NCBI GenBank assembly: GCA_963663385.2
Contig: CAXXXD010000002.1
Coordinates: forward strand, 960,001 to 1,024,000
Source: Oceanispirochaeta sp.
GTDB taxonomy: Bacteria; Spirochaetota; Spirochaetia; DSM-2461
Length of the DNA stretch: 64,000 nucleotides
Direction of reading: 5' to 3'
In this document: positions 52,876 to 58,306 of the stretch, one piece after another
Layout of the letters: every line of letters begins with the position of its first letter
Position numbering within the stretch: position 1 is the first letter of the stretch
Made by a program: the position numbers and the translations under genes
The notes under the pieces: generated by a model
Told to the model about the DNA's origin: nothing
The model's database searches: none
Seen by the model: only the letters and a program-made list of their open reading frames with translations

Positions 52876-53829
52876 ATGAATCCGCTTGTTTTCGATATTT
52901 ACAAAATGTCAGCCCATGACGGGCCGGGGATGAGAACAGTGATATTTCTGAAAGGCTGCCCCCTCAGATGCCGGTGGTGCCATAATCCGGAGAGCTTCCG
53001 TGCTTCTCCGGAAATCTGGGTCTATCCCGAGAGGTGTATCGGATGCGGCCAGTGCCTGGAGTCCTGCCCGGAAGGTGCTCTGTCATTTGATCAGAAGAAG
53101 CGGCCCCTGTTAAACCGGCAGCTCTGTACAGGCTGCGGCCTGTGCTCGGCTGTCTGTCCGGCAAAAGCCCTGGTTGATATAGGTAAATCCTGCTCAAAGG
53201 ACGAGCTTATGAAAATAATTCTGAGGGAAAAGACCTTTATGGATGAAACGGGCGGGGGCGTTACCTTTTCCGGCGGGGAGGCTCTTCTCTATCCCGGGTT
53301 TCTCAGTGAAATGCTGAAGGCCTGTAAAGAGGTCGGGGTTCATACGGCAGTGGATACCTGCGGGGCGGTTCCCTGGGAGAGCCTGGAAAAGGTTCTCCCT
53401 TTTACGGATCTTTTCCTCTATGATCTGAAAATACTGGATCCGCGGGAGCATAAAAAATATACGGGTCTGGGTAACAGGAGGATCCTGTCCAATCTGGAAA
53501 AGCTGAATCCTGTTCTCAGGCGGGAGAAGAAGACACTCTGGATCCGGACTCCCCTGATCCCGGGAGCTACGGACGGTACGGCTAACATCAGGGGCATTGC
53601 CGAATACATCAAAGCTAAACTGGTTCCTCTGCCTGAAAGGTGGGAACTGTGTGCTTTCAATCCTCTGGGCGAGGAGAAATACAGACGGCTGGATCTGCCA
53701 TGGGAGTATAAGAGGGGGTTCATGCTGGAGCAGAAAGCGGCAGACTCCCTTCTGCATACGGCAGGAGAGGTTTTCAGAGGAGCGGGTGAAGCCGGAATTG
53801 TCCGGCTTACAGGTCTGACTGCCTCCTGA
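52876..53829 (+). CDS. Glycyl radical enzyme activating enzyme (radical SAM with ferredoxin insert)
   Basis: HDGPGMRTVIFLKGCPLRCRWCHNPES, two CxxCxxCxxxCP motifs, GGVTFSGGE. Confidence 0.93.
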   Translation: MNPLVFDIYKMSAHDGPGMRTVIFLKGCPLRCRWCHNPESFRASPEIWVYPERCIGCGQCLESCPEGALSFDQKKRPLLNRQLCTGCGLCSAVCPAKALVDIGKSCSKDELMKIILREKTFMDETGGGVTFSGGEALLYPGFLSEMLKACKEVGVHTAVDTCGAVPWESLEKVLPFTDLFLYDLKILDPREHKKYTGLGNRRILSNLEKLNPVLRREKKTLWIRTPLIPGATDGTANIRGIAEYIKAKLVPLPERWELCAFNPLGEEKYRRLDLPWEYKRGFMLEQKAADSLLHTAGEVFRGAGEAGIVRLTGLTAS

Positions 53830-55465
53830 GGGATTCCTGGTATTCAACAGGAGTTATCCCCATGGCCTTGTGGAAGTTTCTGAAAAAGTAACTCCTGCTG
53901 GTGAAGCCTACGGCAATCCCGACCTGTCCCGCATTCAGGGAACTGGTTTTAAACATATGACAGGCTCTGTCTATACGTGTCCTGTTCAGGTAGAAGGAAA
54001 AGGACTCTCCCGCTTCTTCCCTGAACAGCTTCCCCAGATAGGAAGCACTCATCTGGAACTGCTGGGACAGGGTTTTCAGTGAGAGCGGCGCCGAGTAATT
54101 CTGATCTACATAATTGATCAGTCTGCGGGCAATGCTGCTGTCAGAACGTTGTATCAGTTCTTCAGAAATCGCCAGAGACAATTTCCGCAGCCAGTCTATT
54201 AGATCTTCCGGAGATTTCTGTTTAAACAGCTGTCTATGAAGGTTCGCATATCCTCCGGTTAGACTCTCCTTATCCAGTTCCTCCTTTTTAACAAGCGAGA
54301 GAAGATCGGAAAGAATTTCAATCAAAAACCCGATACAGTACTCCCTGTCTGCTGCAGGGTGGTTGGTATAATCCATGAGCAGTCTGTTAAAAAAGTGACT
54401 GATAAGGGTTGTACTCCCTTCTATAATACCGCATATCAGATCATCTGTTTCAATTTCCCCGAAAGGCGTGTCTTCCCTTACAAAGCGGTCAAGGGATGCC
54501 TTGTCAATTATCCGTACGGGCAGGTAGGTAATCGGTTCAATCTCCAGGCCGTTGAACCAGTCTACAGCTGTTTTAACGGGCAGGGTTCCGTCCTGAACAG
54601 GATCCTGCCAGGTTATGGCATTCAGGCTGCCGTTTCGCAAAAGGGCAATCCCAACGGGTGTGCTCCCGTTGGCAACCCGGATCAGATCGGCTCTGCCATA
54701 CCGCGCCAGAGCATCGTTTATGCCCAACTGGCTTGTATTGTCATCCGCACTGATAATTCCCTTCAGTTTCGTTCCGTGTTTTACAAGCCAGGACAGCACC
54801 ATGTCGCATGTTTTCTGTCTGTTCAGCCCGGCCGAAGCCATTTCAAGCAGCTTCATACCCGGAGCACATTCCGCGAGTTCCGTTATGGCTCCCCATGCCC
54901 TGGCGTAATAGGGGGAGGTCCCCGGCAGGTGGGTAACAATGGCATAGCCGCCTTCATGGTTCATCAAACGGGCAAAGTGCCGGCTCAACTGCCTGGTCTG
55001 TTCCCAGTCATCCGGACCGGTCCAGGAGAGGATGTAGGGAAAACCGTCATCCTCCGGGAGCATATTGCTTGCAATGACAGCTATGCCGGCTTCATAGAGT
55101 CGTCTGTACAGGTAGGAACTGTCTTCATTGCTTTCCGGCATCAGTATAACAATGTCAGGCTTATCTTCGATAATGGCTTCAACCTGCTGATCCTGGAGTT
55201 CCGGATCCCACCCGGCATTGTAGATACTCAGCACCATTCCCTTTTTTAATGCCGCCTCACGGAGTCCCCGTATATATTCTCTCTGATAGGGGTGATCTCC
55301 CGCCAGCAGGGCAGCTATCCGTTTCCCCTCCGGTCCTGTTTCAGGGGGAGGCGGCTGCCTTTTTTTTCCGATATGCCAACCGGCATATTCCTTGTCATAC
55401 CAGTGTTCAGGCCTGGTTTTCGGGTATTCAGTCGGTTCTTCCGGACGGGGAGGGATGAATTTCAT
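53807..55465 (-). CDS. Sugar-binding-protein / AraC HTH fusion regulator (paralogue 1)
   Basis: Type I PBP domain (SWTGPDDW, GIISADD) plus C-terminal SYLGKLFREE.G.SF...VGF...YF AraC HTH; no signal peptide. Confidence 0.85.
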   Translation of the reverse strand: MKFIPPRPEEPTEYPKTRPEHWYDKEYAGWHIGKKRQPPPPETGPEGKRIAALLAGDHPYQREYIRGLREAALKKGMVLSIYNAGWDPELQDQQVEAIIEDKPDIVILMPESNEDSSYLYRRLYEAGIAVIASNMLPEDDGFPYILSWTGPDDWEQTRQLSRHFARLMNHEGGYAIVTHLPGTSPYYARAWGAITELAECAPGMKLLEMASAGLNRQKTCDMVLSWLVKHGTKLKGIISADDNTSQLGINDALARYGRADLIRVANGSTPVGIALLRNGSLNAITWQDPVQDGTLPVKTAVDWFNGLEIEPITYLPVRIIDKASLDRFVREDTPFGEIETDDLICGIIEGSTTLISHFFNRLLMDYTNHPAADREYCIGFLIEILSDLLSLVKKEELDKESLTGGYANLHRQLFKQKSPEDLIDWLRKLSLAISEELIQRSDSSIARRLINYVDQNYSAPLSLKTLSQQFQMSASYLGKLFREEAGESFSFYLNRTRIDRACHMFKTSSLNAGQVGIAVGFTSRSYFFRNFHKAMGITPVEYQESLRRQSDL

Positions 55466-55540
55466 GAAAGAAGTTTAGAGAGTGACCGCCCTTTTTGTCA
55501 AACAGCTTTTTTCAACTCCGGGAGCAGGGAGGAATAATAA

Positions 55541-55568
55541 TTGACAAATGGTAAAATTGTGATAAAAT
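55541..55568 (+). promoter_or_regulatory. Sigma70 promoter of the UroD-like gene, now upstream of the IS
   Basis: TTGACA-16 bp-TAAAAT with extended TG. Confidence 0.65.
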
Positions 55569-55676
55569 ATAGGTAAAATAAAAACAAAATTTTATCACAG
55601 TTTGTACGAAATGCTCACGGCCTGGTTATGCAAGCGGGCTTGAGAGTTTTTACAGGAGGAATGATAAAAAGTCTTC

Positions 55677-55860
55677 ATAGGCTTGTGGATTGATACAATG
55701 TTCTAAACATCGTTTAGAACAGCCAGGTTACTGTTCGCCATTTTTACTGGTCTCCGAGACCGTACAGGAGAATGAAGAGCCGTGACCGAAACATTCAATG
55801 GTCTTCGAGACCGGATAGGAGAATGGAATCAATTCACCGTACAGGCGCTGTTTTAGGCAA
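55677..55860 (+). ncRNA. Predicted IS110 bridge/seekRNA
   Basis: 5' hairpin 55699-55721; twin GGTCT-nCG-AGACC hairpins flanked by segments matching the target and donor; ends approximate. Confidence 0.75.
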
Positions 55861-55873
55861 TAGGAGCGAAGGT

Positions 55874-56986
55874 ATGAAGATGAGTATCGGAGTGGATCTG
55901 CACAAATCCCAGTTAACAGTCTGTTTCCTGAGTGATGATAGAAGCATTTGTGAATCAGGAATGTATCCGACCTCTGAGGACGGTTACAGAGCATTTCTTG
56001 AGAAAGCAGTGTCCTATACAGAAGAGGGCCTTGATGTTAGGGCTGCAGTGGAATCAACAGGAAATGCCCGGTTCTTCCGTAACAAGCTATTGCTAGCAGG
56101 GATTGAGGTGGTGGTTGTGAATACACTGAAATTCAAAGTTGTAAATGAATCAGTGAAAAAGACGGATAAGCATGATGCCAGAACTCTAGCAGAGTTCTTG
56201 GAAAAAGATATGCTTCCCGAATCACAGCTTTGTTCTCAGGAGAGTGAGGATATCCGTAGAGTTCTTAAATCCAGAACTATCCTTGTTAAATCAGTCGTAT
56301 CTTTGAAGAATCAGGTTCACGGACTGCTTCTAGGGTATGGAATTGAAACAAAAAGAGCTGCGCTGCAGAGTAAAAAAGAAAGGCAGCGCATCCTCATCGG
56401 TCTCGTGGACCATAGGAGTTTCGGAAGCGCTGCCAAAGCGATAGAACCGCTGCTTTCTACGATAGATCAGGTTTCGAACCAGGTCAAGCAGTTAGAGAAA
56501 GTCCTGCTGGAACTTGTAAAGGAAGATGAGGATGTACAGTTATTGCAGACGATCCCGGGAGTCGGATTGATAACGGCATCGACTATTAGGGCCTATACGG
56601 ATGATATCAAGCGGTACGCCAGTGCCAAGAAGTATTCGGCTTATGCCGGTCTTGTACCATGGGTGCAGAACTCCAATGAGACGATTCATCATGGGCATAT
56701 AACAAAGAGAGGGGCTGTAGAACTGAGAACGGCATTTGTTCAGTGTGTTATGGGAATGGTTAGAACTCGGAAAACGACTGGCAATTACCGTATCATGACG
56801 AAGTACAGAGCGATGAAGAAGAACAAGGGCAGCGGCACGAGTATTATCGCCTCTGCAAGAAAGATGAGTACGGTAGTGTACTCCATATTGAAAACCCGTG
56901 AACCCTTTGATCCGTTGAAGATGGTTCCGGATGATAAGTACTTGAAGATGCAGGCGGCTGCATTCAATGCCGTAAAAACTGGGTAA
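55874..56986 (+). CDS. IS110 DEDD transposase/recombinase
   Basis: IGVDLHK (D), AVEST (E), KTDKHDA (DD), LQTIPGVG, YAGLVPWVQNS (Ser); AGGAG SD at 55862. Confidence 0.95.
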   Translation: MKMSIGVDLHKSQLTVCFLSDDRSICESGMYPTSEDGYRAFLEKAVSYTEEGLDVRAAVESTGNARFFRNKLLLAGIEVVVVNTLKFKVVNESVKKTDKHDARTLAEFLEKDMLPESQLCSQESEDIRRVLKSRTILVKSVVSLKNQVHGLLLGYGIETKRAALQSKKERQRILIGLVDHRSFGSAAKAIEPLLSTIDQVSNQVKQLEKVLLELVKEDEDVQLLQTIPGVGLITASTIRAYTDDIKRYASAKKYSAYAGLVPWVQNSNETIHHGHITKRGAVELRTAFVQCVMGMVRTRKTTGNYRIMTKYRAMKKNKGSGTSIIASARKMSTVVYSILKTREPFDPLKMVPDDKYLKMQAAAFNAVKTG

Positions 56987-57046
56987 TCCGGTTCAATTGT
57001 AAGCTTGTTAATAGGCTTATGATTGACTTTTTATAGGAGTAAAAAA

Positions 57047-58306
57047 ATGACTTCAAGAGAAAGAGTTCTGGCCTCTGTCAACCACAGGTCTCCCGATCGG
57101 GTTCCCATTGACCTCGGCGCTACTCCCAGTTCCGGGATATCGGCGGTGGCCCATAACAATCTGATTAAACATCTGGGCTGGGCGGATTCTCCCACCCGGA
57201 TCTACGATGTGGTGCAGCAGCTTGCCCAGCCTGATGAAAAGCTGATAGAGCTTCTGGGGGTGGATATTCTGGATATTGGCCGGACCTTCAATACGTCTCC
57301 CGAAGACTGGTATGAGATAGATCTTCAGAATGGGGGTAAAGCGCAGTACCCGGTCTGGTTTCGTCCTGTCAAAAATGAAAAAACCGGAGAGTGGGAGGCT
57401 TTTCACCGGACCAGCGGGCGAAAGATTGCGTCCATGCCCGACAGCGCCACCTTCTATGATCAGTCATACTTCCCCTGGGTGAACGGATACCCGGACAGCC
57501 GGCAGGGGATGGAAGATGCTCTGGATGAGGCAATGGACCATATCCTCTGGTCCCATCTTGTGCACAGTCCCTGGGACCATGCGGGAGATGCGGGTTTTTT
57601 TGATACCCTCAGAAGCAACACCCTTGCCCTGCGGAAATCCAGCGATAAAGCCCTGATGGTTGTAAACGGGTGCAACCTTTTTGAATGGGGCACCTTTCTC
57701 CGCCGTATGGATAACTTTCTGATGGACCTCTATGTGGAACAGGATAAAGTAGCCATGCTGATGGAGCTGCTCATGGAACGGCATATGAAGGGCCTTGCCA
57801 AAACCTGCGAAGCCGTGGGGGATACGGTTGATATTTTGCGTTTCGGTGATGATCTGGGTATGGATTCGGGGCCTTTTATGGGACTGGAAGTGTACCGGGA
57901 CCTTTTTCATGAACACCGTAAGACTCTCTGTTCCCATGTGCATCAGAACAGCAGCATGAAAACCTTTCTCCATACCTGCGGGTCCATGCATCAGTATATA
58001 CCCAGCCTGATAGAGGAGGGAATGGATATTATCAATCCCGTTCAGACCAACTGCCGGGATATGGAGGCGGATAAACTGAAAGAGGAATTCGGGAAGGATA
58101 TCGTTTTCTGGGGCGGCGGAATGGATCCCCGGGTAATTCTGAATACGGGAACCCCGGAACAGGTCCGGGAAGAGGTCCGGAAGCGTCTGGACGTATTTAC
58201 TCCCGGGGGCGGATATGTTTTCAACAATATTCATAATATTATGCCCGATGTGCCGCCGGAAAATATCCTGGCCATGTTTGAGGAAGTTCAGAAATATCAG
58301 CTGTAG
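57047..58306 (+). CDS. Uroporphyrinogen decarboxylase / MtaA-CmuA-like methyltransferase family protein
   Basis: MTSRERV...PDRVP, GDDLG, LHTCG, INPVQ, FWGGG, GGYVF..HNI..DVPPENI. Confidence 0.85.
   Translation: MTSRERVLASVNHRSPDRVPIDLGATPSSGISAVAHNNLIKHLGWADSPTRIYDVVQQLAQPDEKLIELLGVDILDIGRTFNTSPEDWYEIDLQNGGKAQYPVWFRPVKNEKTGEWEAFHRTSGRKIASMPDSATFYDQSYFPWVNGYPDSRQGMEDALDEAMDHILWSHLVHSPWDHAGDAGFFDTLRSNTLALRKSSDKALMVVNGCNLFEWGTFLRRMDNFLMDLYVEQDKVAMLMELLMERHMKGLAKTCEAVGDTVDILRFGDDLGMDSGPFMGLEVYRDLFHEHRKTLCSHVHQNSSMKTFLHTCGSMHQYIPSLIEEGMDIINPVQTNCRDMEADKLKEEFGKDIVFWGGGMDPRVILNTGTPEQVREEVRKRLDVFTPGGGYVFNNIHNIMPDVPPENILAMFEEVQKYQL

Follow-up and report, generated by a model that had tools for sequence, protein, structure and literature searches.

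An IS110-family element at Shine-Dalgarno sequences, with a bridge RNA that appears set to translation initiation regions

Introduction

Can a mobile element insert itself into the ribosome-binding site (RBS) of a gene and still leave that gene with a signal for translation? This question is raised by an insertion sequence (IS) of Oceanispirochaeta sp. that lies in a 64,000-nt stretch of contig CAXXXD010000002.1 (assembly GCA_963663385.2, forward-strand positions 960,001 to 1,024,000). This whole stretch is called the window, and coordinates without a prefix refer to it. The element belongs to the IS110 family and stands directly ahead of a gene for a UroD-like protein. Two 12-nt words mark its margins, TTTTTACAGGAG in the host DNA on the left (55647-55658) and TTTTTATAGGAG at the right end of the element (57028-57039), and they are the same at 11 of 12 positions (C at 55653, T at 57034). 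The first-pass annotation of this locus proposed that the element lands on a Shine-Dalgarno (SD) sequence and rebuilds it with its own right end. This proposal is borne out at all 10 copies in the same genome and at all 15 copies of a relative whose recombinase is 79% identical, and it agrees with a guide of the form xxAGGAG in the RNA that the element appears to encode.

Target choice by a guide RNA is established in the IS110 family, as set out in the text of the reports on IS621 (PMC11208160, PMC11208158). Given the anatomy of the present element, the positions of its copies, the covariation between guide and flank and the existence of an allele that lacks the element, all of which were observed directly, we consider it very probable that this is a bridge-recombinase element of the IS110 family whose bridge RNA is set to translation initiation regions. 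Copy positions, guide covariation, site choice and the nature of the right end all uphold the reading that the element is aimed at such regions and leaves an SD sequence at the original spacing.

Insertion sites in the same genome

The 1381-nt block is present in 10 copies in the 5.3-Mb assembly, 8 of them at 100% identity and 2 at 99.93% (one base each). At every copy the left flank ends in AGGAG (ACAGGAG at 8, AAAGGAG at 1 and GCAGGAG at 1), the right end is the invariant TTGACTTTTTATAGGAG, and an ATG located 6-8 nt past that right end begins an open reading frame (ORF) of 98-689 amino acids (aa). All 10 of these downstream ORFs have Pfam matches, and the genes are diverse: URO-D-like, MCP, H+-pyrophosphatase, MdcD-type ACP, GNAT, GDPD, Zn-ADH, GFO/IDH/MocA oxidoreductase, alpha/beta hydrolase and a marginal DUF6588 (27.5 bits against a cut-off of 27). 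The recombinase gene is co-oriented with the downstream gene in each case, and thus the mapping of copies suggested by the first-pass annotation finds them at RBSs in the direction of the gene without exception. Within 73 nt upstream of 6 of the 10 sites lies the end of an open frame that runs in the same direction and is 90 codons or longer; if these predicted frames are genes, six insertions lie between the cistrons of operons.

The placement of the copies at gene starts is not due to chance. Outside the copies, only 195 of 1444 ACAGGAG words (13.5%) are followed, 3-12 nt on, by the start of an ORF of 80 aa or more, and therefore the heptamer alone does not explain the placement. When an ATG is present 5-8 nt from the word, 87 of 140 open an ORF of that length.

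The resemblance between the two margins is less extensive than the 12 nt originally claimed. Eleven of 12 bases do agree at the UroD site, but the part of this mimicry that recurs at other sites amounts to only about 7 nt (A-T/C-AGGAG), and the TTTTT portion is specific to the UroD site. AGGAG is present on both sides of the element, whose boundaries can be slid up to 5 nt leftward. The ends read GAATGAT.. on the left and ..ATAGGAG on the right, without terminal inverted repeats or a long target duplication.

Two of the copies (genome G000, C3:58408-59788 on the minus strand and C3:65100-66480 on the plus strand; loci L011 and L013) are divergent and only 5.3 kb apart, before the MCP and MdcD-type ACP genes. 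A recombinase acting on such inverted copies could invert the intervening segment. A search of the same genome for solo ends or for copies resembling miniature inverted-repeat transposable elements (MITEs) yielded nothing convincing, only two left-end-like and three right-end-like 12-13-mers, none of them paired.

A leader RNA with two guide loops

Between the two 12-mers, a 215-nt non-coding leader precedes the 370-aa recombinase ORF. The fold predicted for this leader beats 200 of 200 shuffled sequences and has two internal loops around hairpins. RNAalifold, applied to 22 relatives, yields 28 consensus pairs, 12 of them with compensatory changes, and these pairs form the outer stem, the basal stem of the first internal loop and the apical hairpins of both loops. 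An Rfam scan of 55300-57300 at E-values up to 1 returned no bridge-RNA family, and the only match was a chance miRNA (E 0.6) outside the element.

The second of the two internal loops, a candidate donor loop, corresponds to the ends of the element. Its 5' strand is fully Watson-Crick complementary (5 of 5) to the left end in 43 of 51 families, and where the left end has changed the loop has often changed with it, with the left-end/loop pairs GCATG/CAUGC in 4 families, GCACG/CGUGC in 3, GTATG/CAUAC in 2 and GAGTG/CACUC in 1. Of 51 aligned sequences, only 3 (L062, L087, L168) depart from the AUAGGAG core of this loop, and the right end is equally constant.

The first loop, a candidate target loop, corresponds to the host DNA. 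Its positions 55764-55770 match the left flank at 55652-55658, and across families its 3' strand follows the pattern G-x3-x2-x1-AGGAG, in which AGGAG persists in almost every one of about 50 families and the two bases next to it vary freely. These two bases follow the flank. Among 44 families, the corresponding flank base is shared by x1 in 41.8 and by x2 in 33.2, against permutation means of 30.1 and 15.6, and neither value is reached in any of 5000 permutations, counts that are not true probabilities because the families derived from metagenome-assembled genomes (MAGs) are mutually related. The covariation was first seen on 23 families, and in the set of 44 neither x3 nor x4 covaries with the left flank.

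The same preference is apparent when occupied sites are compared with the RBSs that the element could have used. We collected 868 unoccupied candidates in its own genome, defined as NNAGGAG followed after 5-8 nt by an ATG that opens an ORF of at least 80 aa. The bases x2x1 are AC at 8 of 10 occupied sites, versus 87 of the 868 unoccupied ones (10%). Furthermore, the spacer is richer in A at occupied sites (64% versus 34%; p 5e-5), and the word TAAAA before the ATG is matched at 3.2 of 5 positions, compared with 1.6 at unoccupied sites (p 2e-5).

The 5' strand of the target loop would have this spacer as its counterpart. In a set of 42 families, the best of 7 registers between strand and spacer gives 117.3 of 252 matches, against 97.7 in permuted sets, with 0 of 600 permutations reaching the observed value. 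In this register five variable bases stand opposite flank positions 2-6, and a nearly invariant CAU stands opposite the ATG when the spacer is 6 nt, which is the commonest length. Two other arrangements were considered and set aside. The canonical register anchored on the core, with CU opposite AG, is not significant (143 of 600 permutations reach it), and a sense-strand reading of the IS621 type, which gives the 5' strand the sense of the left flank, fits the UroD site (TTTTTAC) and gives no diagonal over 23 families.

An allele without the element

Four DNA-type sequencing runs were compared with the window, all in the form of contigs that each cover only part of the stretch. In run X9, one 343-nt contig matches 55444-55646 and then 57028-57167, skipping 1381 bp, with six letters that fit either side of the joint. 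This contig confirms both the size and the position of the insertion. The empty allele predicted by the first-pass annotation thus exists and lacks exactly 1381 bp, but it carries T where C had been predicted at the single differing base, so that it equals the right-hand copy of the word without difference. There is one other difference in the 203 nt of left flank, and therefore the contig comes from a slightly different strain. Two readings of the T are available. It could be a strain polymorphism located exactly where the guide has its C, and occupation of the site in one strain but not in the other would then be accounted for, or it could reflect a deletion between the repeats with the crossover left of the mismatch.

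Runs X7 and X9 also place the element behind other flanks, again ending in ACAGGAG. No contig that joins the right end back to the left end, as a circle junction would, was seen in the four runs. The UroD-like orthologues of four relatives in the genus have the same start codon with an SD-like purine run before it; as a source of the exact empty site they were rejected, since at no more than 76% DNA identity they are too distant for allele comparison.

Relatives across the clade

A protein-seeded scan with one genome per species returned 76 loci. The relative with 79% aa identity is present in 15 copies in one Spirochaetia MAG chromosome (OY776510.1). All 15 follow a flank ending in AGGAG (TATAGGAG in 10, TTTAGGAG in 3), and in all 15 an ATG is present 5-7 nt past the same right end. 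Few changes are seen in either end even where recombinase identity falls to 51%: the right end is still TTGACTTTTTATAGGAG and the left end still GAATGATAAAAAG. By record, the hosts of the clade are Spirochaetia, Marispirochaeta, Alkalispirochaeta, Treponema, Leptospira, Desulfobacterales, Dysgonomonadaceae and MAGs of candidate phyla.

At 21 of 28 further loci, an ORF of 60 aa or more begins with an ATG at a distance of 3-8 nt. The seven exceptions comprise five with a short ORF or no start in range, one with a second SD sequence and a later ATG, and one missed by the pattern. Of 36 downstream proteins in relatives, 28 have Pfam matches at E-values up to 1e-5, and the genes found behind these copies include those for phosphoglucose isomerase, a PlsC-type acyltransferase, KDPG aldolase, two antitoxins, a DAP/ornithine decarboxylase, isopropylmalate synthase, and E1-beta-like and lipoamide-dehydrogenase-like proteins. 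A metagenome scan with 17 nt of the right end gave at least 80 loci, and the matches listed include 75 right ends with at least 12 nt of flank. Among these listed matches, an ATG is present 3-12 nt past 52 of the 75 right ends, and 42 of those 52 lead into a frame that is 60 aa or longer or is still open at the contig end. The RBS habit is therefore clade-wide but not universal.

Several individual loci deserve mention. The copies before the E1-beta-like and lipoamide-dehydrogenase-like genes (L033 and L034, OY776510.1) are about 8 kb apart, apparently within one 2-oxoacid dehydrogenase cluster. In a Marispirochaeta genome (L074:1392-2396), a 56%-identical element stands before a gene of the URO-D family whose product begins MTPRERVLG.., compared with MTSRERVLA.. 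in the window; its guide, UUAAGGAG, differs, and this is therefore probably an independent insertion at a paralogous RBS. In L060 (2617-2678), the right end shows its final 31 nt (..TTGAGCTCACGG-G/T-TGACTTTTTATAGGAG) in two tandem copies, which may be the scar of two successive insertions at one RBS.

At three loci of the 79% relative (L036, L037 and L043, at about 1137-1287 of each locus, OY776510.1), the full element lies directly behind a MITE-like element of about 135 nt that starts with GAATGATAAAA, ends with a hairpin and ACTTTTTATAGGAG, and is itself preceded by a host ..AGGAG. The arrangement suggests stacking, in which the full element entered an SD sequence rebuilt by an earlier, non-autonomous copy, and such stacking probably explains the presence of TATAGGAG in 10 of the 15 left flanks. 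For none of the 15 copies do the preceding 1287 nt contain a remnant of a recombinase.

Other members appear to have been naturally retargeted away from RBSs. The target loop of L150 reads CACAGAG, as does its flank, that of L116 reads CACGGAG, and that of L082 reads TTGAGAG with a TTTAGAG flank. The right flanks of all three are without a nearby ATG, and their right ends are still TATAGGAG.

Features of the locus

The coordinates of the element and its surroundings are collected in Table 1. The recombinase has two Pfam matches, PF01548 (E 8.7e-21, residues 5-155) and PF02371 (E 4.6e-19, residues 222-302). An 8-bp sub-terminal inverted repeat is formed by ATAAAAAG in the left end, which pairs with CTTTTTAT in the right end.

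Table 1. Positions of the element, its putative guide RNA and the adjoining host signals in the window
Feature	Position	Strand	Details
Sigma-70-like promoter of the host, UroD-like gene	55541..55568	+	TTGACA, 16-nt spacer, TAAAAT, TG before the -10 box
Left flank, host DNA	55647..55658	+	TTTTTACAGGAG; original SD sequence ACAGGAG at 55652-55658; this copy varies between insertion sites
IS110-family element	55659..57039	+	1381 bp; defined by 10 genome copies and an X9 contig skipping exactly 1381 bp
Left end	55659..55671	+	GAATGATAAAAAG; first 5 nt read by the donor loop; conserved across the clade
Bridge RNA, structured core	55685..55838	+	Outer stem, 5' hairpin, target loop, donor loop; fold z-score -4.15
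Target loop, 5' strand	55739..55748	+	CAUUUUUACU; complementary to the top strand of the spacer, and to ATG at a 6-nt spacer
Target loop, 3' strand	55762..55770	+	GUACAGGAG; same sense as left flank and SD sequence
Donor loop, 5' strand	55792..55796	+	CAUUC; reverse complement of left-end GAATG
Donor loop, 3' strand	55813..55821	+	GGAUAGGAG; same sense as right end ATAGGAG
Recombinase gene	55874..56986	+	370 aa; DEDD_Tnp_IS110 and Transposase_20
Right-end hairpin and T-run	56993..57034	+	15 pairs (3 G-C), then CTTTTTAT; resembles an intrinsic terminator
Element-borne AGGAG	57035..57039	+	Stands as SD sequence before the host gene
Host spacer and UroD-like gene	57040..58306	+	Spacer TAAAAAA at 57040-57046; ATG at 57047; 419 aa, URO-D domain

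The first-pass annotation had placed a host promoter at 55541-55568, and a promoter-like site with 11 of 12 consensus matches is indeed present there, now directed into the element. Only two promoter-like matches occur on the plus strand in 55300-57300, both upstream of the element, and thus none was found on that strand inside it. Host transcripts would in this arrangement read into the genes for the bridge RNA and the recombinase. A further promoter might form when the ends are joined in a circle, with TTGACT (57023-57028) as the -35-like box, a 17-nt spacer made of 11 nt of the right end and 6 nt of the left end, and TAAAAA (55665-55670) as the -10-like box. A TG precedes the latter at 55662-55663, such that TGATAAAAA in the left end resembles an extended -10 box, and both boxes are conserved in the clade. 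This candidate circle-junction promoter is proposed from consensus matches only. The 3' arm of the right-end hairpin overlaps the TTGACT box.

Within the first 33 nt of the left end (55659-55691), each of the three forward frames meets a stop codon (GAA TGA TAA, ..TCA TAG and ..GAT TGA), and therefore an upstream host ORF that overlaps the SD sequence would be closed quickly, with a gain of one codon or two at most for the copy at C3:65100. Farther upstream, a divergent gene (53807-55465, minus strand) encodes an AraC-type regulator with a periplasmic-binding-protein domain, which is an ordinary context for an operon devoted to a sugar or methyl substrate.

A proposed route of insertion

If the process is modelled on IS621, the excised element would have its right end joined to its left end, and the donor loop would hold these joined ends, ..ATAGGAG of the right end and GAATG.. 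of the left end. The 3' strand of the target loop (x2-x1-AGGAG) would recognise the SD sequence together with the two bases before it, and the 5' strand would recognise the A-rich spacer, with CAU opposite the ATG at a 6-nt spacer. Strand exchange would then take place at a short core at the end of GGAG. The expected product has the host SD sequence before the left end and the ATAGGAG of the element before the unchanged spacer and ATG, such that the spacing of the SD sequence is preserved. The asymmetry of such a target would account for the fact that all copies share the direction of the gene behind them. The block shared at the junction is AGGAG, whose sense strand is without CT; we infer that the crossover dinucleotide would be AG on the strand with the sense of the bridge RNA, and CT on the other.

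Comparison with known systems

An association between an IS110-family element and translation starts has a precedent. In 1997, Doran et al. reportedly described IS900 of Mycobacterium avium subsp. paratuberculosis as aiming at translation initiation signals. The present element shares features with both IS900 and IS621, and it departs from each in several respects. The comparisons below follow the descriptions given in the text of the cited papers.

As in the group of IS621 (PMC11208160, PMC11208158), the recombinase combines a DEDD/RuvC-like with a Tnp domain, and a long non-coding left end encodes an RNA with a target loop and a donor loop, both of them internal loops around stem-loops. In both, changes in the guides go along with changes in flanks and element ends, a promoter would arise only in the circle, from a -35-like box at the right end and a -10-like box at the left, and the donor site has short sub-terminal inverted repeats around it. 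Unlike IS621, which targets REP elements and uses a 2-nt core (PMC11208160, PMC11208158), the element described here has the SD-spacer-ATG of genes as its target, and its donor and target share AGGAG. In addition, IS621 is described with the core CT on the sense strand and a 5' loop side that pairs with the bottom strand (PMC11208160, PMC11208158); here the order is reversed on that strand, with a block ending in AG. When the other strand is read instead, the arrangement fits that described for IS621, with CT as core and with two guides, one on the 5' side and one of 7 nt on the 3' side whose end is AG, and it also fits the IS900 target motif CATGNNNNNNTCTCCTT (PMC8141618), which is the reverse complement of SD-N6-CATG. 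Judging from the text of these papers, the orientation of the genes in the present clade, taken against the polarity of the recombination site, seems to be opposite to that in IS621 and IS900.

Like the element in the window, IS900 is an IS110-family element that, by its published description, inserts in one orientation at an SD sequence followed by a spacer of about 6 nt and an ATG (PMC8141618). The same source describes the IS900 recombinase gene as antisense to the host gene and an antisense ORF, hed, that spans the element and is said to use host signals (PMC8141618). Here, in contrast, the recombinase is co-oriented with the host gene at 10 of 10 copies, and no antisense ORF spans the element, the minus-strand ORFs within it being 88, 52 and 60 aa. 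The seekRNA elements of the IS1111 group (Siddiquee et al. 2024, PMC11187229) are also similar, in that a DEDD recombinase is directed by RNA to a short target, but as described in that paper their guide RNA lies downstream of the recombinase gene and their sub-terminal inverted repeats are long, whereas here the RNA is upstream of that gene and the inverted repeat measures 8 bp. In the literature searched, which took in few subscription journals, nothing beyond IS900 was found on SD targeting by IS110 or bridge-RNA elements.

Alternative explanations

Direct repeats that flank an insertion, present as a single copy in the empty allele, would ordinarily suggest a target-site duplication made by a staggered cut. 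For the two 12-mers we give this explanation almost no credence, since the repeats differ at one base at the UroD site and the right repeat is invariant while the left one varies among the 10 copies in the genome and again among the 15 copies of the 79% relative, which contradicts duplication. The right repeat is also conserved throughout the clade, and the recombinase is of the DEDD/IS110 type.

A more serious alternative is that the RBS location is a by-product: the guide would fit a purine-rich word, insertions within genes would be removed by selection, and the SD-like right end would reflect two sister loops of the RNA that simply never diverged from one another. The two loops are indeed very similar in sequence. 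Moreover, so few motif sites precede starts, as counted above for ACAGGAG, that the motif would not give 10 of 10 without a further filter, and the donor-like left flanks of the 79% relative would fit the 'half-match' off-target insertion described in a published account (10.64898/2026.08.31.748434). However, the 5' strand of the target loop fits the spacer as well, and occupied sites are enriched for this fit among candidate RBSs. AGGAG has been kept in the target loop of nearly all of the roughly 50 families while the two bases beside it change, and IS900, a distant member of the family, is described as having the same SD-N6-ATG target (PMC8141618). We therefore judge the by-product explanation improbable and continue to favour a bridge RNA set to translation initiation regions.

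A number of observations nonetheless weigh against this preference, besides the relatedness of the families that limits the permutation counts. Ten of the 15 left flanks in the 79% relative are TATAGGAG while its guide is UUUAGGAG, such that these flanks are nearer to the donor guide than to the target guide. Among the metagenome matches listed, 23 of 75 right ends have no ATG within 3-12 nt. The empty X9 allele carries T at x1 where the guide has C. Pairing by the 5' strand is weak, with about 47% of positions matching in a register that was picked among 7, and when this strand was scanned position by position in 24 families, no clear diagonal emerged. In the RNAalifold consensus, the CA of CAU is paired to the UG of AAUG, and CAU may thus be conserved for the structure of the RNA rather than for the reading of ATG. 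Finally, the guide arrangement on the strand with the sense of the bridge RNA is reversed relative to IS621, and therefore the mechanism is carried over by analogy.

Expression of the downstream gene

Whether the gene behind the element stays on is a separate matter, and we put the chances that it is expressed by read-through at close to even. Continued expression is suggested by the strong promoter-like site at 55541-55568 and by the lack of a plus-strand promoter-like site inside the element. One candidate for an outward promoter in the right end, TATGAT at 57018-57023, was dismissed, for its -35 box is poor, its spacer is 15 nt, and the hexamer is unconserved, being part of the 3' arm of the hairpin.

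It could be that replacement of the SD sequence has no effect on expression, because the insertions are polar: the hairpin and T-run would terminate transcription before the SD sequence is reached, and AGGAG would serve donor recognition and not translation. The fold at 56993-57026 has a z-score of -3.9, is followed by CTTTTTAT and lies directly before the rebuilt SD sequence, and a hairpin before TTGAC-TTTTTAT recurs in most of 21 relatives with differing stem sequences. The retargeted members (L150 with CACAGAG, L116 and L082), whose guides and flanks are not SD-like, keep the TATAGGAG end all the same. Furthermore, copies that are 99.9-100% identical are too young for silenced genes to have decayed. 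Against these points stands the fixation of AGGAG in both loops and in the right end down to 51% recombinase identity, even though IS621 is described as needing only a short shared core (PMC11208160). The genes found behind relatives' copies, such as those for phosphoglucose isomerase, the PlsC-type, E1-beta-like and lipoamide-dehydrogenase-like proteins, KDPG aldolase and the antitoxins, are ones whose loss would probably be costly. In addition, the stem is rich in A-U (3 of 15 pairs are G-C), and termination may leak. On balance, we think it rather unlikely that the replacement is without effect, and the downstream gene may stay expressed.

Implications

Some parts of this picture are already known, namely RNA-guided targeting in the IS110 family and the location of IS900 at initiation signals. 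What distinguishes the present elements from IS900 is that they are sense-oriented and have no element-spanning antisense ORF. A broader proposal, which we hold only tentatively and at somewhat less than even confidence, is that a widespread clade of bridge-RNA elements, with hosts among Spirochaetia, Desulfobacterales, Treponema, Leptospira and other MAGs, might have evolved to live in RBSs. Its guide would read SD sequence, spacer and AUG, its copies would land co-directionally in 5' untranslated regions and between cistrons and be transcribed by the host, and the replacement SD sequence would render them nearly harmless. Rebuilt SD sequences would in turn be targeted again, as in the stacks with MITE-like elements, and the genes of the clade would be inverted relative to those of IS621 and IS900.

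These elements provide a natural, clade-wide example of a bridge-RNA target that is not a repeat but a functional signal present before most genes. Their structure suggests how insertion into a signal can come at low cost, namely when the donor end carries a copy of that signal. The IS900 observation of 1997 would gain a guide-RNA explanation that is directly testable, and the many natural pairs of guide and target, with a fixed AGGAG and two free positions, offer material for the study of mismatch tolerance and 'half-match' insertion. In annotation, a gene behind such an element should be labelled neither promoterless nor devoid of an RBS, and the copies can be used to mark true start codons.

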